64,000 nucleotides of DNA from a virus, in the IMG/VR virus record IMGVR_UViG_3300027418_000370; one strand, 5' to 3'. Below, in pieces: positions 21,447-40,555 of this stretch; the first letter of the stretch is position 1, and every line of letters starts with the position of its first letter. Position numbers and translations under genes: made by a program. Under the pieces are notes generated by a model that was not told where the DNA came from, ran no database searches, and saw only the letters and a list, made by a program, of their open reading frames with translations.

Positions 21447-21943
21447 TGGCAAATACTTGTAGAACAGATGTAAAAATTGTTGCTTCAAAAGAAGCAGTTG
21501 ACTTTTTGTATGGAAAGTTTGAAAATATGAATGATGGGAAGTATCCAAATGAAAAGGAAACTCCACATATTGTAGATGTATTTGGTGCTGATGCTGAATT
21601 ATTTATTGATAAAGTAGGTTCAAAGTGGATTACAATTTACGATTATAGCACCTATGAGAATGAATTTGAAGTTAGCTTTGAATCAGCTTGGTATCCACCA
21701 TCAGATCTATTGAAAGAAATGCATCGACAGTTGATGGCTATTGATCCGGATGCTACATTTACAGCACGTTATTGGGATGAAGCATACGATCCTATTGGAG
21801 TAATTAAGATTACAGATGCCGGCCAGTACCTAACTGTTGAGACCGAACCTGAGCCTGAAGACGAATTCGAAGGTGAGTACTACTGGGATGATGTAATCGA
21901 TCCAGAGTTTGCTCGACTAGAAAGAAAATTAGGAATAGCGTAA
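21446..21943 (+). CDS. Hypothetical protein (DUF1281/YubB-like C-terminal motif)
   Basis: MANTC...GSKW...FESAWYPP...YWDE pattern. Confidence 0.5.
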   Translation: MANTCRTDVKIVASKEAVDFLYGKFENMNDGKYPNEKETPHIVDVFGADAELFIDKVGSKWITIYDYSTYENEFEVSFESAWYPPSDLLKEMHRQLMAIDPDATFTARYWDEAYDPIGVIKITDAGQYLTVETEPEPEDEFEGEYYWDDVIDPEFARLERKLGIA

Positions 21944-21987
21944 GCCTATACGCTTAAAATACCTGGCAGTTATAAATTATATTTAAA

Positions 21988-22812
21988 ATGGCAAAACACG
22001 TTGTTGTTAGTCTTTCAGGAGGGATGGACTCCTCTACGTTACTTCTAAAAGCTCTTAAAGAGTTTGATACAGTAACAGCAATGTCTTTTGATTACGGTCA
22101 AAAGCACAGAGTAGAGCTTGAAAGAGCTCAAGAGTTGGTAAAGTACTTGAGTGATAACGGTCACTCTGTTAATTACCGAGTAATCAAACTAGACGGCTTG
22201 GTTGACCTGCTCAACTCGGCTCTAGTAACAGGTGGTGCTGAAGTACCTGAAGGTCATTACGCAGAAGAGAATATGAAAGCTACTGTTGTACCGAACCGAA
22301 ACAAAATCTTCAGTTCAATTTCTCAAGCTGTAGCACTTTCTATTGCAAATGAAACTCAGGAAGAAACTTCCATTGCGTTGGGCATTCATGCTGGTGATCA
22401 TGCGATCTATCCGGACTGCCGACAGGAATTTCGGGATGCAGATGACGCTGCTTTCCGCACTGGTAACTGGGACGCTGAGCGCGTATCTTATTGGACTCCT
22501 TATCTTGAAGGCGATAAGTTTACTATTCTAGAAGACGGACTGGTATTATGTGAGAAGCTAGGAATAGACTTTGATGAAGTTTATAAGCGTACTAACACCT
22601 CTTATAAGCCAATCAAGTACTATCACCGTCCAGAGACTAATGCCTGGACTTGGTACTCAGACTACAAATCAGCTTCTTCAGTAGAGCGTATTGAAGCTTT
22701 TATTAAGCTAGGACGACCTGATCCTGTAGCGTACGCTGATGAGACCGGCCCAGTGAGCTGGGAGGTAGCACGTGAGCATGTTGAAAAAGTTTTAGCAGCA
22801 CACGCAAATTAA
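21988..22812 (+). CDS. queC: 7-cyano-7-deazaguanine synthase
   Basis: SLSGGMDS, FDYGQKH, VPNRN, YPDCRQEF. Confidence 0.95.
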   Translation: MAKHVVVSLSGGMDSSTLLLKALKEFDTVTAMSFDYGQKHRVELERAQELVKYLSDNGHSVNYRVIKLDGLVDLLNSALVTGGAEVPEGHYAEENMKATVVPNRNKIFSSISQAVALSIANETQEETSIALGIHAGDHAIYPDCRQEFRDADDAAFRTGNWDAERVSYWTPYLEGDKFTILEDGLVLCEKLGIDFDEVYKRTNTSYKPIKYYHRPETNAWTWYSDYKSASSVERIEAFIKLGRPDPVAYADETGPVSWEVAREHVEKVLAAHAN

Positions 22813-22813
22813 T

Positions 22814-22843
22814 TAGGGGGGAGCTTGTCTCCCTCCCTATTTA
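22814..22843 (+). terminator. Putative terminator hairpin after queC
   Basis: taggggggag-cttgt-ctccctcccta followed by ttt. Confidence 0.55.
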
Positions 22844-22856
22844 TTCTTATATTAAG

Positions 22857-22886
22857 AGTGTCGGAGCACCACTATAAAAACACCGG
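22857..22886 (+). ncRNA. Candidate preQ1 class I riboswitch aptamer (copy 1)
   Basis: P1 AGUG/CACU, loop UCGGAGCAC, tail AUAAAAACACCGG directly abutting ATG 22887; located just after a promoter. Confidence 0.6.
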
Positions 22887-23480
22887 ATGAAAAAGTTACT
22901 ACTATTATTACCTCTGCTCTGGGCTTGTGAAACGATTGAGCCCTATGTTCCTGAACCTTGTCAGGAATGTACTACTATTCATAGAGTAGATACTATTCAA
23001 CATCCTGGAACTTATTATCAAGACGGATACTGGCATTTACAATATTCAGGTATAAATTACTTCCAGGTTATCGGTCAGTTAGATTCCCTACATCCTCAAT
23101 ATGTTATAAATGGAGTACCGCTACTTCAAGTAGTATATGATAGCGATACCTGGTATGTATTTGATACCATTGCTATGCAAATACCTCTGTACTCTCCATT
23201 TACTTCCCAATATACTTCCCCAAGCTTTAATTACCCTATCTCAACAGGAGATACTACAATCTATATTACAAATCCTAACTACATTATAAATGCAGTAGGT
23301 TATACGTTTGGAAGTACAAACTTTGTGAATGCTATGCACACATACCAGCCCCGGTGTGAAGTACTGGTGTTTGAAGAGATGGTGGGAGATACGATTAATG
23401 TCTTCACAAGAACGCGTTATAACTACGATCTAGGTACTCAGATAATAGTAAACGATACAATTAAAGTTATAGTAGAATGA
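22887..23480 (+). CDS. Hypothetical lipoprotein
   Basis: MKKLLLLLPLLWA-C lipobox. Confidence 0.6.
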   Translation: MKKLLLLLPLLWACETIEPYVPEPCQECTTIHRVDTIQHPGTYYQDGYWHLQYSGINYFQVIGQLDSLHPQYVINGVPLLQVVYDSDTWYVFDTIAMQIPLYSPFTSQYTSPSFNYPISTGDTTIYITNPNYIINAVGYTFGSTNFVNAMHTYQPRCEVLVFEEMVGDTINVFTRTRYNYDLGTQIIVNDTIKVIVE

Positions 23481-23683
23481 AAAAACAGTTATTAGTAGAG
23501 CCTGTTCTTCCGAAAAGTAAGAACATTGAAAAGATGCCTGATCAGAAATGGCATCAAATTATCTCATTTATTAAATCCGGAGTCCGTATTCTTGGTTACG
23601 CACTGCTTATTGTTGATATCCCAACAGCAATGGTGGTACTGGTCTTGAGTGAGGCAGTCGGCATAATCGAAGAATTAGTATGA
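23477..23683 (+). CDS. Small membrane protein
   Basis: Hydrophobic C-terminal half. Confidence 0.55.
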   Translation: MKKQLLVEPVLPKSKNIEKMPDQKWHQIISFIKSGVRILGYALLIVDIPTAMVVLVLSEAVGIIEELV

Positions 23684-23940
23684 AGTATTTGTATTTCTCA
23701 GCACCTTGGTGCGGTCCTTGTAGAATGTTAGGTCCAACAATGGAAAAAGTAGCAGCAGAAGGAATTGCTGTAGAAAAAATTAACATCGATACGGAAGAGC
23801 TCCTAACGATGGAATACACAGTCCGCAGTGTACCTACTGTAGTACTGATTGATGATTCTGGAAAAGAATTTGCTCGTACAGTTGGCGCTAAGCCATTAAG
23901 TCACTATATTGAACAATATAATAATTTTACAAATGTATAA
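23680..23940 (+). CDS. Thioredoxin
   Basis: WCGPC active site, SVPT cis-Pro motif. Confidence 0.9.
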   Translation: MKYLYFSAPWCGPCRMLGPTMEKVAAEGIAVEKINIDTEELLTMEYTVRSVPTVVLIDDSGKEFARTVGAKPLSHYIEQYNNFTNV

Positions 23941-24391
23941 GTCAAGAAAGAAGTTTGATGGCTTTAGTACTTGCTTCCGTCAATGGAAAGCGAATACTAC
24001 ACACTGTCAGTACCTACACGGCTATGATGTAGAGTTTGAAGTAACGTTTGAAGGAGATCTCGATCACCGTAACTGGGTATGGGACTTCGGAGGTATGAAG
24101 CGAGCTAAGAACCTGATCGACGGTATGCAACCTAAAGAATGGATGGAGCATATGTTCGATCATACTGTAGTTGTAGCAGAAGACGATCCTGAACTAGATA
24201 ACTTCAGAGATATGGCCGACAGAGGCGTTATTCAGTTACGAGTAGTAGAGGCAGTAGGTGCAGAGAAATTTGCTGAATTTCTTTACCACAAGCTAAATGA
24301 CTTCGTACAGACAGAGACAGACGGCCGAGTTAAGGTCATTAAAGTTAAATTTATGGAGAACCACAAAAACTCAGCAATCTATGGCGCTTAA
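23933..24391 (+). CDS. queD: 6-carboxy-5,6,7,8-tetrahydropterin synthase
   Basis: CQYLHGY, WVWDFG, FDHT, AE motifs; ATG at 23933. Confidence 0.9.
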   Translation: MYKSRKKFDGFSTCFRQWKANTTHCQYLHGYDVEFEVTFEGDLDHRNWVWDFGGMKRAKNLIDGMQPKEWMEHMFDHTVVVAEDDPELDNFRDMADRGVIQLRVVEAVGAEKFAEFLYHKLNDFVQTETDGRVKVIKVKFMENHKNSAIYGA

Positions 24392-25157
24392 GAGAATTGA
24401 AGATTATAATAAGGTACTGCCGATTGTAGAGCTTTACCGATGTGTACAATCAGAGGGTAGTCGTTTTGGACGTCCTACTATCGCTGTACGTACTACAGGA
24501 TGTACTCACCGCTGCTACTTCGGTGAAGGAGGTTGGTGTGATAGCTGGTATACCTCTATCCATCCAGAGAAAGGTGGTTATTCATTTAACGATATTATTA
24601 AGATTTACGATGAGAATCCTCACGTAAAGGAGATGATGCTAACAGGAGGTAGCCCAACAATGCACCCAGCCTTAGTAAATGAGATTACTCACTTTGCTAA
24701 AGAAAGAGGTATTATTGTTACTATTGAGACTGAAGGTTCTCACTTCCTTGAGACGGACTATCCTCTTGATCTTATCTCTCTATCTCCTAAGTTCTCTAAT
24801 AGCGTACCCGTAGTAGGAGCTGTTACACCTCAAGGCGCTATTGCAGATGAGAAGATGATTAAGCAACATAACAAGTTCCGTATCAACAAAGATGCTATCC
24901 GTCAGACTTTGGACTATCATACTGATTACCACTTTAAGCCGGTATGGGACGGTAGCGCAGCGAATCTAGTAGAGATTGAAGCATTTAGGGTTGAGATGAA
25001 TATTCCTAAAGACAAGACTTTTGTTATGCCTGCAGGTGATACTCGTGAGACTTTAATTGAAATGTACCCAATCGTATTTGAGATGTGTGCCGAGCACGGT
25101 TACAATATGACCGGACGTGATCACATCATTGCCTACGATACTAAGAGAGAAGTATAA
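24381..25157 (+). CDS. queE: 7-carboxy-7-deazaguanine synthase (radical SAM)
   Basis: VQSEG..GRP, GCTHRC-x7-CDS, LTGGSP, IETEG, SLSPK. Confidence 0.92.
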   Translation: MALKRIEDYNKVLPIVELYRCVQSEGSRFGRPTIAVRTTGCTHRCYFGEGGWCDSWYTSIHPEKGGYSFNDIIKIYDENPHVKEMMLTGGSPTMHPALVNEITHFAKERGIIVTIETEGSHFLETDYPLDLISLSPKFSNSVPVVGAVTPQGAIADEKMIKQHNKFRINKDAIRQTLDYHTDYHFKPVWDGSAANLVEIEAFRVEMNIPKDKTFVMPAGDTRETLIEMYPIVFEMCAEHGYNMTGRDHIIAYDTKREV

Positions 25158-28247: not shown

Positions 28248-28277
28248 AGGTGTCGAAGCACCACCTAAAAAAACAAA
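28248..28277 (+). ncRNA. Candidate preQ1 class I riboswitch aptamer (copy 2) upstream of folE
   Basis: P1 AGGUG/CACCU, loop UCGAAGCAC, tail AAAAAAACAAA; lies between a promoter (28213-28241) and the folE ATG (28282). Confidence 0.7.
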
Positions 28278-28281
28278 TTAT

Positions 28282-28992
28282 ATGGCAGATAAAAAACGTT
28301 ATGATGTAGAACTCGCTCAAGCCGGGTTCGCTAATGGTGTCTCTTCTCAACTGGCTGAGAAGTTTAAAGTTCATTCTATGAACTCTATGCACTTAACAGA
28401 TCAAGAGAAGCATACTATTATTGAGAATGCTGCAAAGGCATTCGGAGAATTCCTAGATGCTCTAGGATGTGACTGGCGTGATGACCCTAACTCATCTGAT
28501 ACTCCTCGTCGAGTAGCTAAGGCTTATGTAAACGACTTATGGGCAGGACGATTCAATCCTATGCCTGAGATCACAGCCTTCCCTGCTGATGGTTATGATG
28601 GTATTGTATTTGAGGGTAATATTCCTTTGACCTCGATGTGTTCGCATCACCACCAGACTATTCAAGGTCGAGTTCATATTGCTTACATTCCAGGTCCTGG
28701 AGGTAAGGTAATCGGTCTATCTAAGCTCAATCGTATTGTAGAGCATTTCGGACGTAGAGGTGCTATTCAAGAGCAGCTTACTGTTGCTATTCATAATGCA
28801 GTTCATACTGTTTGTGAAGGTAATGTAGGTGTAGCAGTTATGGTAGAAGCTACTCACAATTGTGTATCATGCCGCGGTACTAAACACGCTGGTGCGTCAA
28901 TGAAGACTTCTAAGCTATCAGGTAGCTTTATGTACGAAGACTCAGCACGAGCAGAATTTTATGAATTTGTTAAAGGTTACGCATGCAAATGA
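28282..28992 (+). CDS. folE: GTP cyclohydrolase I
   Basis: DTPRRVAK, SMCSHH, IGLSKLNRIV, QEQLT, HNCVSCRG. Confidence 0.95.
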   Translation: MADKKRYDVELAQAGFANGVSSQLAEKFKVHSMNSMHLTDQEKHTIIENAAKAFGEFLDALGCDWRDDPNSSDTPRRVAKAYVNDLWAGRFNPMPEITAFPADGYDGIVFEGNIPLTSMCSHHHQTIQGRVHIAYIPGPGGKVIGLSKLNRIVEHFGRRGAIQEQLTVAIHNAVHTVCEGNVGVAVMVEATHNCVSCRGTKHAGASMKTSKLSGSFMYEDSARAEFYEFVKGYACK

Positions 28993-29495: not shown

Positions 29496-29689
29496 GTCCA
29501 AAAGAACTGGTAGAACAAAATAGTATCTTCTTAGAAGACCTACAACGCTGGGTTGTACCTTTAGAAGTAGTAGAGGAAGCCTTGCAGATCAAGAGCGCTA
29601 AAGAGCTTGAAGATAATTTAGGTAAACTTCAAGATAGTATGTTAGAATTAAACAAGTTATTTAACGATTTAGGAAACGCCAATGGTTAA
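29492..29689 (+). CDS. Hypothetical protein
   Basis: Small coupled ORF. Confidence 0.5.
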   Translation: MSPKELVEQNSIFLEDLQRWVVPLEVVEEALQIKSAKELEDNLGKLQDSMLELNKLFNDLGNANG

Positions 29690-30509
29690 GATTGCACACG
29701 AGAGTCCTATTGCTAGCTTTGACACTATTCAGCAGTATACGGATTATGATTACGCTTTAGTACATCTCTTTGAAGAGAACGAAACTTATTTAGATAAGTT
29801 TGTAGAAGCACGAGATAAAGGACGAGAGATTATTCTCGATAACTCTATCTTTGAATTAGGAAAAGCTTTTGATTCAGAACGCTTTGCTTTCTGGATTGAT
29901 TATTTAAAGCCTACCTGGTACATCGTACCTGATGCATTAGAGAATGTAAAGCGTACTTGTGCTAATATGGCTGAGTGGAACTTTAAGTATGCAGATCATC
30001 TAGCAGCACCTAGTAAAAAGATTGGAGTACTACAGGGAAAGACTTACTCTGAGCTTATCAATTGCTATGACTACATGATTAATATAGCAAAGGTAGATAT
30101 GGTGGCTATCTCTTTCGATTACAGTTATTACGAACAGCTCGTACCACACCCTAACAAGTATGTTAGCTGGATGCTAGGCAGAGTTGTGCTCTTAGGTAAG
30201 ATGTTACGTGATGGAGTAATCAACCCAGATATCCCTCACCACCTACTAGGCTGTGGACTTCCTCAAGAGTTTGCTTTCTATAAAGACTACGATTGGATCT
30301 ACTCACTAGATACTTCTAACCCAGTAGTACACGGTTTGTTGGGAATCGAGTATAAAGATCAAGGGTTGTGGGATAAGGCATCAATCAAGTTATTTGAGAT
30401 GATTAATATGACTCCTACCTCTGAGCAGGTTACTTCAGCAGTTTATAATGTTCAACGCTTTAGATGGTTCGCACATGGTAGCAACTCGTCCGTGGATAGC
30501 ATTCTTTAG
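29682..30509 (+). CDS. dpdA: DpdA-like 7-deazaguanine transglycosylase (TGT fold, probably DpdA3-type)
   Basis: TGT-barrel motifs ILDNSIFE, IVPD, GVLQG, HHLLGCG, SLDTS; no Zn-binding CxCxxC of tRNA TGTs; sits among que genes. Confidence 0.75.
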   Translation: MVKIAHESPIASFDTIQQYTDYDYALVHLFEENETYLDKFVEARDKGREIILDNSIFELGKAFDSERFAFWIDYLKPTWYIVPDALENVKRTCANMAEWNFKYADHLAAPSKKIGVLQGKTYSELINCYDYMINIAKVDMVAISFDYSYYEQLVPHPNKYVSWMLGRVVLLGKMLRDGVINPDIPHHLLGCGLPQEFAFYKDYDWIYSLDTSNPVVHGLLGIEYKDQGLWDKASIKLFEMINMTPTSEQVTSAVYNVQRFRWFAHGSNSSVDSIL

Positions 30510-31035
30510 TCAGACTGGATCTGAGATTGTTCAGGTTAGTAAGCAGTTAGGTCGCTGGCCTGACCTTATTATTACTAATATCAGGCCTTCTCATTTACGT
30601 ACTATACATCCTGAGATTCCTACAGACCTATTAAAGTATACTCAGAATAGACCTGAGGAGCATGAGCTTGTATGGCTGATGAGTGCAATAAGTGATAACC
30701 CTGTTGTAACTTTACACGGATGGTTAAGAGTAATGCCTGCTTCTATCTGTAATCGCTATGAAATCTATAACGGACATCCAGGATTGATTACTAAATATCC
30801 AGACCTAAAAGGAAAAGATCCTCAATATAGAGCCTGGGAAGGTAACTATAAGACTGCTGGCTGTGTTATTCACAAAGTAACTGCCGGAGTAGATGAAGGA
30901 GAAGTTCTAGTGGAGCGAGAAAGTATACATAAGATGTTGCCTAAGAACGATATTTTTCGTATCTTACATGACACATCAGTAGAGATGTGGATAGAATTTT
31001 TACATAATAAACTATGGTTAGACGAATTGCATTAG
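30475..31035 (+). CDS. PurN-like formyltransferase (DpdN, putative dPreQ1 formyltransferase)
   Basis: FFSQTGS, LHGWLRVM, NGHPG, GCVIHKVTAGVDEG formyltransferase motifs; overlaps the dpdA-like gene. Confidence 0.8.
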   Translation: MVATRPWIAFFSQTGSEIVQVSKQLGRWPDLIITNIRPSHLRTIHPEIPTDLLKYTQNRPEEHELVWLMSAISDNPVVTLHGWLRVMPASICNRYEIYNGHPGLITKYPDLKGKDPQYRAWEGNYKTAGCVIHKVTAGVDEGEVLVERESIHKMLPKNDIFRILHDTSVEMWIEFLHNKLWLDELH

Positions 31036-31532: not shown

Positions 31533-32447
31533 ATGGAAGAAGTAAAGAACTACAATGCAGTCGTTGAGATTGCTGGTAAACACCTCGGTAAGGTAGGTGG
31601 AGAAGGTTACTCAGATCAGTACAATGCTGAGTTGCTAGTAGCAGTACCTCGTTATTTAAACCGAGAAGCTTACGGAATTGAGGAGAGTAATCTTCCATTC
31701 GTAGGAGTAGATGCTTGGAACGCTTATGAAGTTTCAGCTATTACTAAAAAAGGTCAGCCTGTAGCAGGTATGTTAAAGATTGTATGCCCAGCTAATACAG
31801 AGTTTCACGTTGAGTCAAAGTCTATCAAATTATACTTGAACTCTTTGAATATGACTCCGATGGGTCAGACAGCTAAGGAGTGTATCAAGGAGATTGAAAC
31901 AACAGTAGCTAAAGACCTAACTGACCTACTAGGAGGAAATGTAACCTGTACCTTCTTCGGCAATACATACACTCCAGAGTTTGAGTTTGATGGCTTTACA
32001 GACTTAGGTGCAACAGTAAACCTTGACAACATTGAGTTTACAGCCTTTAAGTCTGATGCAGGTCAGCTTGAGATTGGCGGCAATCTTCCAATGTCTGTTA
32101 CAACTAAAGTAAGTTCTAACTTGCTACGTAGTAACTGCCGAGTAACTAACCAGCCTGACTGGGGTGATATCTACATCCATATGCAAGGTCATAACTCAAT
32201 TAAGCTTGAGTCACTAGCCAAGTATATCGTTAGTCACCGTACAGTATCTCACTTCCATGAAGAGATCTGTGAGATGGTATTTACTCACCTTCAGCAAGCC
32301 TATCAACCTGAGAAGCTTATGGTAGCATGTTTATATACACGTCGTGGTGGATTGGATATTAATCCTATTCGAGCTACACATAAAGATATGATCCCAGGAT
32401 GGTTTACTGATTCGGGTAAACGAATGAGAAAAACTTTACGTCAATAA
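31533..32447 (+). CDS. queF: NADPH-dependent preQ0 reductase (bimodular type)
   Basis: VESKSIKLYLNS, RSNCRVTNQPDWG, FHEEIC, YTRRGGLDINP. Confidence 0.95.
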   Translation: MEEVKNYNAVVEIAGKHLGKVGGEGYSDQYNAELLVAVPRYLNREAYGIEESNLPFVGVDAWNAYEVSAITKKGQPVAGMLKIVCPANTEFHVESKSIKLYLNSLNMTPMGQTAKECIKEIETTVAKDLTDLLGGNVTCTFFGNTYTPEFEFDGFTDLGATVNLDNIEFTAFKSDAGQLEIGGNLPMSVTTKVSSNLLRSNCRVTNQPDWGDIYIHMQGHNSIKLESLAKYIVSHRTVSHFHEEICEMVFTHLQQAYQPEKLMVACLYTRRGGLDINPIRATHKDMIPGWFTDSGKRMRKTLRQ

Positions 32448-35480: not shown

Positions 35481-35921
35481 ATGACACAAATCAACTACAA
35501 GTTGTGGGATAATAACGTATCCTCAACATTTGATATCCTTTTCAAGGATTTCTTCAATCAGAACTCTACCTTTAATTCTCCGGTAGACAACAAGATCGGA
35601 CACCCGGTCGACATTTACGAAACACAACACGGACTATTTTTCGAGATTGCCTGCACAGGTCTTAGCAAATCAGATGTTGAGATTAATGTGGAAGGTGACG
35701 TACTCCGTATTGTACATAACTCAGAGGACAGGCTTAAAAAAGATCCTGAGAACCTCAGAGTGTATCACAAAGGAATTGCCAAACGTTCCTTCAATTTAGG
35801 TTATAAGATTGCTCGTAGATTTGACATGGAAGCTATCGATGCTAAGATGCAGGATGGTCTCTTAACAATTAATATCCCTCACACTGAGGAAAATAAACCT
35901 ACGAAAGTTAAAATTAAATAA
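35481..35921 (+). CDS. Small heat-shock protein (Hsp20/IbpA family)
   Basis: PVDIYE, HKGIAKRSF, AKMQDGLLTINIP. Confidence 0.9.
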   Translation: MTQINYKLWDNNVSSTFDILFKDFFNQNSTFNSPVDNKIGHPVDIYETQHGLFFEIACTGLSKSDVEINVEGDVLRIVHNSEDRLKKDPENLRVYHKGIAKRSFNLGYKIARRFDMEAIDAKMQDGLLTINIPHTEENKPTKVKIK

Positions 35922-36263: not shown

Positions 36264-36586
36264 AAAGATTAGTACCTATGAATGACCGCTTGGTCGTTAA
36301 ACCTATAGAAGAGACTGAGCAGATGTACGGTAACATCATCATCGCTGATATGGGTAAAGAACGTCCTGAGATGGGCGAAGTTATTGCTGTAGGACCTGGA
36401 CGTATGTCCGAATACGGTAAATTTATCCCAGTTAACTTTAATGTAGGTGATATTGTATTGCTACCTAAGATTGGAACCCTCCGAGTAGAGTTTGAAGGCG
36501 AAGAGTTCTACATTGCTCAATCTCGAGAAGTTCTCTGTAAAGTACAAGAAACATATAATCCAGAATCAGATCACGAATTACTATGA
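36260..36586 (+). CDS. groES: Co-chaperonin GroES
   Basis: PMNDRLVV, GEVIAVGPG, VGDIVL. Confidence 0.92.
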   Translation: MKRLVPMNDRLVVKPIEETEQMYGNIIIADMGKERPEMGEVIAVGPGRMSEYGKFIPVNFNVGDIVLLPKIGTLRVEFEGEEFYIAQSREVLCKVQETYNPESDHELL

Positions 36587-38205
36587 GTAAACGTATAGAA
36601 TTTTCAAATGATGCCCGTAAAGGTCTTCTTAACGGTGTAGAGAAACTTTCAAATGCTGTAACAGCTACGCTAGGTCCTAACGGACGTAACGTTATTATCG
36701 AACAGCAGCAAGGTAACCCTATCTCTACTAAAGACGGTGTTACAGTAGCTAAGGCTGTTGAATTAGAAGATACAGTTGAGAATATGGGTGCACAGCTTGT
36801 TAAGCAGGCATCTATTAAAACAGCAGACGGTGCCGGTGACGGTACTACTACATCAACTCTGCTAGCAGCTGAGATTTACAAACACGGTTTAGGTTCTTTA
36901 GACTTCCATAATGCTACTGATGTCAGTCGCGGTATTGCTAAAGCTACTACAGCCGTTGTAGATTACTTAGAGAAGAATGCTAGAGAGATTACAGATGAGA
37001 ATCAGTTGCGTCAAGTAGCAACTATCTCAGCTAACAACGACCCAGAAGTGGGAGAGCTTATCGCTTCATCGATGGACAAGGTGGGACGAGAAGGCGTAGT
37101 GACGATTGAGGAGTCTCGCACAGGTGAGACTTACCTCGAGGTTGTTGAGGGTATGCAGTTTAATCGAGGATACAAGTCTATATACTTTGTCACGGATAAC
37201 AATTCCATGACTGCCGTTTTGAGCAACCCTCTCGTTTTGATTACAGATAAGAAAGTCACTGCCGCAAAAGAGCTACTGCCAATCCTTGAGGCTTGCTCTT
37301 CACAGAACAAACCATTGCTCATCATCGCTGATGACATCGATGGCGAGGCTCTCTCCACTTTGGTCGTTAATAAGATGCGAGGCATCCTTCAAGTAGTAGC
37401 AGTTAAAGCTCCAGACTTTGGAGATCGTAAGAAAGCTATGCTAGAAGACATTGCTGTGTTAACAGGAGGTCAAGTAGTAAGTACTGAGAAAGGTATGCGA
37501 CTTGATAAATTCAACCCAGACTGGTTAGGTTCTTCTCGTAAGATCACTATCGGTAAAGACGATACTACGATTGTAGACGGTAAAGGAGACACGGAAGCTA
37601 TCAGTGCTCGCATTGAGGAGATTAAAGCTCTTATCGATAATAGTAAATCACCTTTTGAAAAGGAGACCCTACAGGACCGCTTAGGACGATTGATCGGAGG
37701 CGTGGCTATCGTACACGTAGGAGGTCAGTCTGAACTTGAGATGAAAGAGAAGAAAGACCGAGTAGAGGATGCCCTTCACGCTACTAAAGCAGCTCTAGAA
37801 GAAGGTATTCTACCCGGAGGAGGTATTGCACTCCTTAATGCAGCACAGGTACTAACGATACCAGAAGGCTTAAACTCCTCAGAAGTAGAAGGTTATAGAA
37901 TTCTAATGAGCGCTATTGGAATGCCTTTTGATACTATTTTAAGCAATGCAGGCTTTACAAAAGATAGAATCGAGAGTATTCTAGAAAAGATTGTTGAATC
38001 GGATAACTTCTGGCAAGGATTTAATCTCCGTACTGAAGACTATGTAAATATGTTCGACGAAGGGATTATCGATCCTGCTAAGGTAACACGCCTAGCATTA
38101 GAGAATGCTTCTTCTATCGCACGTACTATGTTGACTACCGAGTGTATTATCAGCAACGTTAAAGAAGAGAACAAACAAGAGATGGACTTTAATCAATTTA
38201 TGTAA
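36583..38205 (+). CDS. groEL: Chaperonin GroEL
   Basis: TLGPNGRNV, TKDGVTVAK, GDGTTT, EGMQFNRGY, GIIDPAKV. Confidence 0.97.
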   Translation: MSKRIEFSNDARKGLLNGVEKLSNAVTATLGPNGRNVIIEQQQGNPISTKDGVTVAKAVELEDTVENMGAQLVKQASIKTADGAGDGTTTSTLLAAEIYKHGLGSLDFHNATDVSRGIAKATTAVVDYLEKNAREITDENQLRQVATISANNDPEVGELIASSMDKVGREGVVTIEESRTGETYLEVVEGMQFNRGYKSIYFVTDNNSMTAVLSNPLVLITDKKVTAAKELLPILEACSSQNKPLLIIADDIDGEALSTLVVNKMRGILQVVAVKAPDFGDRKKAMLEDIAVLTGGQVVSTEKGMRLDKFNPDWLGSSRKITIGKDDTTIVDGKGDTEAISARIEEIKALIDNSKSPFEKETLQDRLGRLIGGVAIVHVGGQSELEMKEKKDRVEDALHATKAALEEGILPGGGIALLNAAQVLTIPEGLNSSEVEGYRILMSAIGMPFDTILSNAGFTKDRIESILEKIVESDNFWQGFNLRTEDYVNMFDEGIIDPAKVTRLALENASSIARTMLTTECIISNVKEENKQEMDFNQFM

Positions 38206-39338: not shown

Positions 39339-39424
39339 GCTACTGTGGTGAAATAGGTAGACACGAGGGACTTAAAATCCCTTGGCCAGTGATGGTCGTG
39401 CCGGTTCGATTCCGGCCAGTAGTA
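39339..39424 (+). tRNA. tRNA-Leu(TAA)
   Basis: Acceptor gctactg/cagtagt, anticodon arm aggga-cttaaaa-tccct, long variable arm, ggttcgattcc. Confidence 0.92.
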
Positions 39425-39442
39425 CACGGAAACCCATATACG

Positions 39443-39453
39443 GTTCTTTGACA
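39443..39453 (+). promoter_or_regulatory. boxA-like antitermination site
   Basis: GTTCTTTGACA in the first tRNA spacer. Confidence 0.5.
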
Positions 39454-39470
39454 TGTTGGATAGATAGAAT

Positions 39471-39552
39471 GCGGATGTGGTGTAATTGGTAGCCACGCCA
39501 GACTTAGGATCTGGTGCTTAATCGCGTGGGGGTTCGAGTCCCTTCATCCGCA
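39471..39552 (+). tRNA. tRNA-Leu(TAG)
   Basis: Acceptor gcggatg/catccgc, anticodon arm ccaga-cttagga-tctgg, ggttcgagtcc. Confidence 0.92.
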
Positions 39553-39669
39553 CATAATGAGAGGAGGAAAAGGTAAAATCCAAAGGTACGGTCGACGGGT
39601 CGTTTAAAACCTGAGGTACGGACTCTGATGCTGTAAGCGCGCTAAAGGAGTGAAGCCTCTCTATAATAT

Positions 39670-39743
39670 GGTCCGATAGCTCAGCTGGATAGAGCAACAG
39701 CCTTCTAAGCTGTCGGTCGAAGGTTCGAATCCTTCTCGGATCA
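39670..39743 (+). tRNA. tRNA-Arg(TCT)
   Basis: ggtccga/tcggatc, acagc-cttctaa-gctgt, ggttcgaatcc. Confidence 0.93.
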
Positions 39744-39835
39744 CTACGCAGTCAGATGCATCTGGTTTCTCTATTCCATTTAAAGATAGAGTGGAGCTAC
39801 AGTGGCAGGTTATGGTTGTCCTCTAACAACCAGCT

Positions 39836-39908
39836 CGGGATGTGGCGCAAGTGGTAGCGCACCTGGTTTGGGACCAGGGGGTTGGAGGTTCGAGTCCTGT
39901 CATCCCGA
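39836..39908 (+). tRNA. tRNA-Pro(TGG)
   Basis: cgggatg/catcccg, cctgg-tttggga-ccagg, ggttcgagtcc. Confidence 0.92.
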
Positions 39909-39930
39909 CTAATTATTAAATGTTTTAAAC

Positions 39931-40095
39931 ATGAAAACAATCATTAAGTACTTCTTTCCGGTAATGTACCTGCTTTACATTGTAGGTATTGGTTTAAACG
40001 TATCAGTTGGCGACTATTCAGATGCTGGCTGGATCTTCAGCGCACTACTCTGGATGTTTAACTACCATATGCTTTACCTAAAGATTACTAAATAA
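39931..40095 (+). CDS. Small membrane protein (54 aa) within the tRNA cluster
   Basis: MKTIIKYFFPVMYLLYIVGIG...WIFSALLWMF; two hydrophobic stretches; below the ORF-track cutoff. Confidence 0.5.
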   Translation: MKTIIKYFFPVMYLLYIVGIGLNVSVGDYSDAGWIFSALLWMFNYHMLYLKITK

Positions 40096-40224
40096 AGAAC
40101 CCAGACGTGTGCAAAGAGACTGAGTCTAGCCTCTAAATCCACTTCGGTGGTTGACTTTCGGGAAAAGATAGTGAGTGGGGAGTACGCCTACCGGACGGCG
40201 TCTCATTGATAACCTCCCCTATAA

Positions 40225-40297
40225 GCCTCCTTAGCTCAGTTGGTAGAGCCACTGATTTGTAATCAGTAGGTCGTTGGTTCGAGTCCGACAGGAGGCT
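40225..40297 (+). tRNA. tRNA-Thr(TGT)
   Basis: gcctcct/aggaggc, actga-tttgtaa-tcagt, ggttcgagtcc. Confidence 0.92.
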
Positions 40298-40392
40298 CAG
40301 AGAGTAGGACTAATAGTTCAGCATACCGCTGCAGCGGTAAAAGTAAGTTGCTGTTAATAGGACGCCGAATCCTAACGCCTATTCTTTTTTAC

Positions 40393-40475
40393 TGGAAGGT
40401 GGGTGAGTGGTTAAAACCGGCAGACTGTAAATCTGCTCCCTTACGGGTACGGCAGTTCGAATCTGTCCCTTCCAA
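40393..40475 (+). tRNA. tRNA-Tyr(GTA)
   Basis: tggaagg/ccttcca, gcaga-ctgtaaa-tctgc, variable arm, agttcgaatct. Confidence 0.9.
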
Positions 40476-40481
40476 CAAATT

Positions 40482-40555
40482 GCGCTTATAGCTCAGTTGG
40501 TTAGAGCATCCGACTCATAATCGGCAGGTCCTAGGTTCAAACCCTAGTAGGCGCA
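40482..40555 (+). tRNA. tRNA with CAT anticodon (probably Ile2/lysidine, otherwise Met)
   Basis: gcgctta/taggcgc, ccga-ctcataa-tcgg, ggttcaaa T-loop; overall resemblance to bacterial Ile2 tRNAs. Confidence 0.85.

Follow-up and report, generated by a model that had tools for sequence, protein, structure and literature searches.

The analysed stretch of DNA (64,000 nucleotides of the IMG/VR virus record IMGVR_UViG_3300027418_000370, hereafter the window) carries, directly in front of a start codon and at the head of a group of genes that includes those for QueD and QueE, a short putative hairpin, which raises the question of whether a phage may control its 7-deazaguanine genes with a riboswitch of the preQ1-I type. 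The element occupies positions 22857-22886 of the + strand and reads AGUG-UCGGAGCAC-CACU-AUAAAAA-CACCGG (30 nt), the ATG adjoining at 22887. In the DNA, positions 22857-22889 are AGTG TCGGAGCAC CACT ATAAAAA CACCGG ATG, letter for letter as given in an earlier inspection of the locus made without database searches (the sequence-only reading). The other two features which that reading had described, a promoter upstream and a start codon directly abutting the element, were also found in place, since a promoter-like TTGTCT-17-TATATT ends at 22853 and the ATG begins at 22887.

The same reading had noticed only two copies of the motif, both in the que region. The 15-mer GTGTCG(G/A)AGCACCAC indeed has two mismatch-free occurrences, at 22858 and 28250, which lie 5392 nt apart, the second of them preceding folE. 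This sister copy spans positions 28248-28281 of the + strand and has the P1 strands AGGUG/CACCU, the loop UCGAAGCAC, an L3 of 7 A, C1' at 28274 and the ATG at 28282. A covariance model built from the relatives of the element (R1) was applied to the window, to the full phage record and to the IMG/VR sources. The two window sites scored 45.5 and 34.7 bits, followed within the 64 kb by a site of 11 bits, and the same two R1 matches only were obtained for the full record of 124,656 bases, so that the count of two copies can be extended to the entire record.

Searches of IMG/VR led to the identification of the element at more than 100 loci. An exact-pattern scan for the 15-mer common to both copies gave, besides numerous chance matches, about 40 loci that have a longer conserved string in common, A-GUG-UCGUAGCAC-CAC-U-UUAAAAACAC, which ends a few bases 5' of the ATG. 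A second scan, which constrained nothing but loop, closing pair and tail, gave 83 distinct instances, including 70 with a stem of at least 4 bp. As a chance control, the identical scan of the collection was repeated with a T in place of the specificity C; it yielded 31 loci, none of which has more than two stem pairs, and no C-to-U variant with a stem was found.

Model R1, run over 100 sources, detected 108 sites (49 distinct sequences). P1 comprises 4 bp, and all 196 cells are paired across the 49 distinct sequences: the first pair is AU in 33, GC in 11, UA in 4 and GU in 1, the second is GC in 48 and UA in 1, the third is UA in 41 and AU in 8, and all 49 close P1 with GC, the G being contributed by the 5' strand. 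Compensatory changes, altering both sides of the pair, are thus seen at three of the four P1 pairs. The observed covariation was reached by none of 500 shuffles, and the signal was lost when the partner strand was slid. One must bear in mind, however, that the copies all derive from a single broad phage lineage, and the compensatory changes therefore represent few independent events. The loop is near-invariant, U-C-G-n-A-G-n-A-C (9 nt), its U, AG and AC being invariant: the U after the P1 5' strand and the AC before the P1 3' strand are present in 49 of 49 sequences and C6 in 48 of 49. In all copies L3 ends in five invariant A followed by C, and its length is 7 nt in 67 of the 72 distinct copies. 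The stretch from C1' to the AUG measures 6-9 nt in most copies, the distance between aptamer and AUG being 6-13 nt overall.

A further sequence is found next to the element in part of the family: upstream GAC(A/U)AU adjoins AGUGUC at L045 (7150-7215) and in many copies of the small-protein type, which makes a GACA/UGUC hairpin possible as a rival to P1 and L1. Such a hairpin could represent an alternative fold adopted without ligand, or it could belong to the initiation region.

Without exception, the 77 distinct genes found behind the element are members of the 7-deazaguanine cluster. The first of them codes for a small membrane protein in 42 cases, FolE in 24, a lipoprotein in 4, QueD in 3 and QueE in 2; the remaining 2 of 77, where the gene was cut by the contig end or the ATG mis-picked, are read as FolE. 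A typical locus runs aptamer, small protein, (thioredoxin), QueD, QueE, ferredoxin, and further on PRTase, aptamer, FolE, and loci that are long enough also contain QueC, a MazG-like gene, a DpdA-like gene, a formyltransferase and QueF. In the window, the gene directly upstream of the element is that of QueC (21988-22812, +, Pfam QueC), and the gene directly downstream (22887-23480, +) encodes a lipoprotein-like product of 197 aa with the lipoprotein-type signal peptide MKKLLLLLPLLWAC. It is followed on the + strand by the genes for the small membrane protein (68 aa, 23477-23683, motif PDxKxHQxxSFxKSxxR), whose gene most often comes first after the element, for thioredoxin (23680-23940), for QueD (likely ATG at 23933, end at 24391) and for QueE (likely ATG at 24381, end at 25157). 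Each of these genes overlaps its neighbour, the start of queD lying within the end of the thioredoxin gene and the start of queE within the end of queD, in agreement with the coupled order proposed by the sequence-only reading.

That reading had left it undecided whether the lipoprotein belongs to preQ1 biology or was inserted behind the switch. The synteny comparison decides for the latter: the lipoprotein gene was found in four distinct cases only (the window, L025, L050 and L171), and in most relatives the element leads straight into the small protein gene, as it does at L099, a near relative whose QueC is 97% identical. The lipoprotein gene is therefore a lineage-specific insertion behind the switch. 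Homologues of the small membrane protein, 67-107 aa in length, are encoded in 61 of 95 loci, the gene being most often located directly under the aptamer. The protein matches no Pfam or PHROG family, and its relatives in the Atlas are viral hypothetical proteins only.

In class I preQ1 riboswitches, the ligand pairs with a C that precedes the P1 3' strand and is itself preceded by A in type II; further features are the uridine that directly follows the P1 5' strand, the adenine that ends L3, a floor made of a G-C pair whose guanine touches the aminomethyl group and, in the aptamer of T. tengcongensis (Tte), a ceiling made by the triple C7-G11-C30, all of which define the alpha binding mode (PMC11625349). 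When the phage consensus was aligned with the Tte aptamer, CUGGG-UCGCAGUAAC-CCCAG-UUAACAAAA-CAAGG (PMC10639078, the source of the B. subtilis sequence as well), every ligand-contacting base was in register. In the window copy (all positions on the + strand), the P1 5' strand AGUG (22857-22860) ends in the closing G22860, the equivalent of the pocket-floor base G5 of Tte, which faces C22870 (C16 of Tte) of the 3' strand CACU (22870-22873). The loop UCGGAGCAC (22861-22869) provides U22861 (U6), C22862 (C7) and G22866 (G11) and closes with A22868-C22869 (A14-C15), where C22869 corresponds to the specificity cytosine. The last A of the A-rich L3 AUAAAAA (22874-22880) is the equivalent of A29, and the tail CACCGG (22881-22886), the candidate 3' strand of P2, begins with C22881, which pairs with G22866 as C30 does with G11. 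The spacing from C6 to G10 equals that from C7 to G11 in Tte.

The likeness to type II preQ1-I riboswitches (T. tengcongensis, B. subtilis queC; RF00522) thus extends over the H-type layout, the short P1 closed by G-C, the U and C right after the 5' strand, the G three bases on that pairs with the C past the A-tract, the AC that leads into the P1 3' strand, an L3 rich in A and the position upstream of preQ1 biosynthesis genes, and the phage loop UCGnAG is near both UCGCAG of Tte and the Rfam consensus UUCGuA. However, P1 has 4 bp in the phage element and 5 bp in type II, L2 has 2 nt plus the specificity C instead of the 3 nt of Tte, which is one base below the smallest known aptamer, and the whole element is about 30 nt long compared with 33-34 nt, L3 being shorter too. 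Unlike type II, the element is restricted to phage contigs, and its P2 is not established past one G-C pair. The expression platform differs as well, since type II members sequester a Shine-Dalgarno sequence in P2 or use a terminator, whereas no Shine-Dalgarno-like sequence in the tails and no terminator between aptamer and AUG were found in the phage family.

Types I and III (Carnobacterium antarcticum, E. coli) share with the phage element the specificity cytosine, the A-rich L3 and the G-C floor. Type I, however, binds two ligands and carries UC ahead of the P1 3' strand and UU behind the 5' strand, where the phage family has AC and a single U, with the exception of one rare variant with UC (L249) and one with UU (L216); type III has a pyrimidine-rich loop and buries AAGG. 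Rare loop variants were noted at L216 (~1440-1500), L249 (~1430-1500), L142 (1049-1079) and L150 (2614-2644). Among these forms, UUCGAAGCAC has one U more, like canonical preQ1-I, UCGAAGUUC shows the signature of type I, UC 5' of the P1 3' strand, and UCACAGCAC has CAG like T. tengcongensis and G at tail position 4'.

The Rfam model RF00522 (PreQ1, gathering threshold 39 bits) was scanned at threshold and at E<=10 against the 64 kb, a 15 kb piece and pieces of 81-101 nt. Neither the window copy nor the family consensus gave a match at E<=10, and the folE copy reached 9.8 bits. Since this lies below the threshold, the element is not a member of the family by Rfam's operational test. The failure of the model may be ascribed to the one fewer P1 pair, the one fewer L2 base and the shorter L3, and annotation based on Rfam misses the phage subtype entirely. 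Taken together, the covarying stem, the invariant loop and tail, the exclusive association with que genes and the positional match to the ligand contacts of Tte support the interpretation of the element as a preQ1-I-like aptamer. Judged by its structural signature, it would work like a member of preQ1-I, ligand binding being inferred.

Stem 2 beyond the invariant G-C pair is, as far as can be deduced from the alignment, weakly supported. The G10-C1' pair is invariant and hence carries no information on pairing. The pair between positions 8 and 4', equivalent to C9-G33 of Tte, is UA in 24, UG in 6, CG in 2 and GC in 2 of the 49 distinct sequences and unpaired in 15; it is formed in 53 of 72 longer distinct sequences, and mismatches are frequent in the folE-type copies. 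All G8 variants, namely the window copy and its close kin, have C at 4', and the C8 variants (loop UCACAG, the nearest to Tte) have G at 4'; these two double changes, probably independent events, seem suggestive only. In the window copy the loop CGG (C22862-G22864) is able to pair with the tail CCG (C22883-G22885), which together with G22866-C22881 would make four pairs around an A-A mismatch, reaching -2 of the AUG. The compensatory pairing of CGG with CCG, which had been proposed earlier, is thus possible in this copy, but it cannot be generalised, as no more than 69-74% of the family's sequences form the 8-4' pair. Two other registers for P2, 8-3' and 7-3', were discarded, since the majority of sequences are mismatched there.

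Thermodynamic folding provided no support, the element folding no better than shuffled sequence (z-scores of -0.9 to +1.2) and the hairpin being weak; in the GCAC-loop variants the minimum-energy fold is a competing GUGU/GCAC hairpin. Stability was therefore given no weight, and the case rests on covariation, conservation and context.

Besides FolE, QueD, QueE and QueC, the record, that of a Flavobacterium-type phage, encodes a two-domain QueF (31533-32447), a PurN-like formyltransferase (30448-31035) and the product of an ORF (29682-30509) that is syntenic with the DpdA gene of the cultured Flavobacterium phage immuto_2-6A. In the DNA of immuto every G is replaced by fdPreQ1, 7-(formylamino)methyl-7-deazaguanine (PMC10516641). 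This base, along with the set of que, DpdA and formyltransferase genes, indicates that preQ1 is an intermediate of the phage-encoded pathway. Phage immuto_2-6A has one copy of the element, GGAG-UCGUAGAAC-CUCC-AUAAAAACAAUC..., situated 4 nt before FolE, and shares the gene set and order around FolE (PRTase, FolE, MazG-like hydrolase, DpdA3, formyltransferase, kinase, QueF, PolA). It differs in having no copy before QueD, and the small membrane protein is absent from it as well. The paper on the immuto enzymes and modified base does not mention a riboswitch (PMC10516641). Cellulophaga phage phiST, which stops at CDG/7-deazaguanine and is devoid of QueC and QueF (PMC10516641), has no copy of the element.

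A BLAST search with the 43-66-nt element against cultured phages retrieved immuto isolates only. A strict pattern produced ten matches in 185,579 species genomes, one of them genuine, and this locus is a 5.9-kb phage-like contig in a MAG, which carries both copies along with phage genes. No canonical RF00522 that could be a host source was found under strict filters in 151 sampled Bacteroidota genomes. Among the best 80 FolE relatives in IMG/VR, about 26 are preceded by the element and the remaining two thirds or so have the identical promoter directly before the ATG and no element. Such carriage among the closest FolE relatives indicates that the element is a discrete module of one sub-lineage.

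A preQ1 riboswitch in Streptococcus phage Dp-1 was considered as a precedent. It had to be dropped, as no Rfam preQ1 riboswitch of any class was found at E<=1 in the que operon of that phage (L326, 1-5000). The operon contains genes for FolE-like, QueC, QueD, QueE, QueT and TGT proteins. The literature yielded nothing relevant on phage preQ1 riboswitches or on riboswitches associated with DpdA.

The explanation that we regard as probable, if by no means settled, is that the element is a miniature aptamer specific to phages, is related to that of the class I (type II-like) preQ1 riboswitch and blocks translation without a Shine-Dalgarno sequence; there are no binding data. It is probably a metabolite sensor confined to phages, binding being untested. 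As inferred from the register with Tte, free preQ1 or its precursor preQ0 would dock between the G-C pair closing P1 and the pair of loop G22866 with tail C22881, and would be read by C22869 through Watson-Crick pairing, with additional contacts from U22861 and A22880, and the A-tract would sit in the minor groove of P1. The folded pseudoknot would cover about -30 to -4 of the AUG (to -2 in the window copy) and would block 30S loading. Initiation in flavobacteria and Bacteroidia makes no use of the Shine-Dalgarno sequence and depends on low mRNA structure and upstream A (PMC6847099). Since ribosomes that are blind to the Shine-Dalgarno sequence need an unstructured A-rich initiation region, the folded element would silence translation of the first gene. 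Silencing may then spread through translational coupling to the overlapping genes for the small protein, thioredoxin, QueD and QueE, the net effect being end-product feedback on the supply of the formyl-preQ1 DNA base.

The position of the promoter presents a difficulty for the window copy. A terminator-like hairpin (22816-22836, +), kept in L050 and L099, follows queC and holds in its loop the -35-like TTG of the promoter-like sequence TTGTCT-17-TATATT (22825-22853, +), whose box TTC[G/T]TATATT lies at 22844-22853. The latter conforms to a general promoter of the phage, (G/T)TTG located 16-17 nt upstream of TTC[G/T]TATATT, of which there are ten exact + strand copies in the window (7501, 8764, 9449, 12280, 17257, 18291, 22844, 28232, 35950 and 44608); when one mismatch was allowed, 41 matches were observed compared with 19 expected. 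Two of the ten copies are followed by the hairpin, and eight are without the element. The motif has sigma-70-like geometry with a -7-like TATATT. Across the family the -10 box is 3-20 nt away from the hairpin, whereas the distance to the AUG is tight. This difference, together with the variable stem and the invariant loop, favours, so far as it can be inferred from comparison of the copies, an RNA that acts at the level of translation over a DNA operator.

In F. johnsoniae, transcription starts 4-5 nt past the 8-nt -7 element (PMC6847099). By this rule the start of the folE transcript is predicted at 28248-28249, the first base of P1. In the window copy the -10 hexamer ends at 22853, 3 nt before P1, which is the family minimum, and the start is predicted at 22860-22861, where the 5' strand of P1 ends. 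This strand may thus not be transcribed from the adjacent promoter, and the window copy may be complete only on transcripts reading through from queC, unless the true start is atypical. The concern of the sequence-only reading about promoter proximity is therefore justified as to the spacing; that the start falls within P1 is predicted by the spacing rule alone. If it does, regulation probably acts on the queC read-through transcripts.

The same observations leave room for the possibility that the family is functional but the window copy is a relic, the promoter having moved so close that P1 is not made and the operon is constitutive. The minimal spacing and the start position predicted from PMC6847099 would both fit, as would the lack of a copy before QueD in immuto. 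However, the element is intact and is kept in the close relatives L025, L050, L171 and L099 at similarly short spacing, including a G8 change with its matching tail C, and read-through past the queC terminator would yield a full P1. We consider a relic somewhat unlikely, with a real chance remaining that it is the correct explanation for this particular copy.

It is also conceivable that the element is an RNA operator bound by a translational repressor protein, of phage or host origin, that governs the 7-deazaguanine genes, and that its likeness to preQ1-I is a coincidence. The targets of gp43 and RegA of T4 are likewise small hairpins with a conserved loop beside the start codon of phage nucleotide-metabolism genes, but they are bound by protein and have no likeness to a metabolite aptamer. 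An invariant loop on a variable stem by the AUG is a signature of protein-bound operators too, and the poor support for P2, the lack of recognition by Rfam and the occurrence in one phage lineage only would all be compatible with such an operator. Nevertheless, about eight separate preQ1-I positions match in register, including the AC and the A-tract followed by C, a coincidence that is hard to accept before exactly those genes that bacterial preQ1-I riboswitches control, and no candidate RNA-binding protein co-occurs in the loci. A protein-bound RNA operator cannot be excluded, although it would have to mimic the preQ1-I signature by chance, and it seems to us decidedly unlikely.

Another alternative keeps the fold and changes the ligand from preQ1 to preQ0, CDG, free formyl-preQ1 or another purine. 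P1 and L2 are shorter than in any characterised preQ1-I, the phages encode steps past preQ1 (formyltransferase, DpdA), and type II aptamers are known to bind preQ0 as well (PMC11625349). Yet the specificity C, the closing G that contacts the aminomethyl group through O6, the U and the A are all kept, and phiST, the phage whose pathway ends at CDG/7-deazaguanine, is without a copy; little probability can thus be given to a ligand other than preQ1. A DNA operator for a transcription factor at or just past the start of both promoters is hardly tenable: the element does lie 3-20 nt past a conserved promoter and overlaps the predicted start in the window copy, but its spacing is fixed to the AUG and not to the promoter, its stem varies and its unpaired loop is invariant, the reverse of what a palindromic operator would show, and it is asymmetric and occurs in sense orientation only.

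Should the miniature preQ1 aptamer indeed bind preQ1, it would represent a riboswitch lineage kept by viruses and not by cells, it would place a DNA anti-restriction modification pathway under riboswitch control, and the minimal preQ1 aptamer would shrink. No report of riboswitch control of a 7-deazaguanine DNA modification pathway was found in the literature. If the proposed mechanism is true, it would also be a natural case of a riboswitch acting on the translation of mRNAs that have no Shine-Dalgarno sequence, which was named an open challenge in the 2024 review of the preQ1 family (PMC11625349). The cultured and sequenced pair immuto_2-6A and Flavobacterium sp. LMO8 has a copy of the element, which makes the idea directly testable. 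One may go further and picture a riboswitch class exclusive to phages which, at about 30 nt, is the smallest natural aptamer so far described and gates a hypermodified DNA base instead of a tRNA base, hiding the A-rich landing site from ribosomes of hosts blind to the Shine-Dalgarno sequence, its ligand maybe being another intermediate and the element forming a multi-sensor RNA circuit for the control of phage DNA modification with a distinct conserved element in the queC leader. As a whole, this extended picture is unlikely.

The queC-leader element just mentioned is a third conserved RNA-like element of the phage, located at 21937-21968 of the window and also found at L201 (11991-12057), at 25 other loci and in the cultured phage immuto. 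It has the form (A)GCGU-NN-GCC-UAU-ACGC(U), followed by an A/U-rich stretch to AAUA, then CCUGGCA, 18-23 nt and the ATG. All 27 distinct copies have a paired stem, three pairs of which show double changes, and the loop GCC(UAU) could pair with a downstream (AUA)..GGC, those bases being invariant. The base 5' of its P1 3' strand is U, not C, and it has no match in Rfam.

Outside the que region, seven tRNA genes are clustered at 39339-40555 of the window (Rfam tRNA, 55-71 bits). Just past the gene of a family A DNA polymerase, the window encodes an Hsp20-family protein (35481-35921) and a GroEL-type chaperonin (Cpn60_TCP1, 36583-38205).
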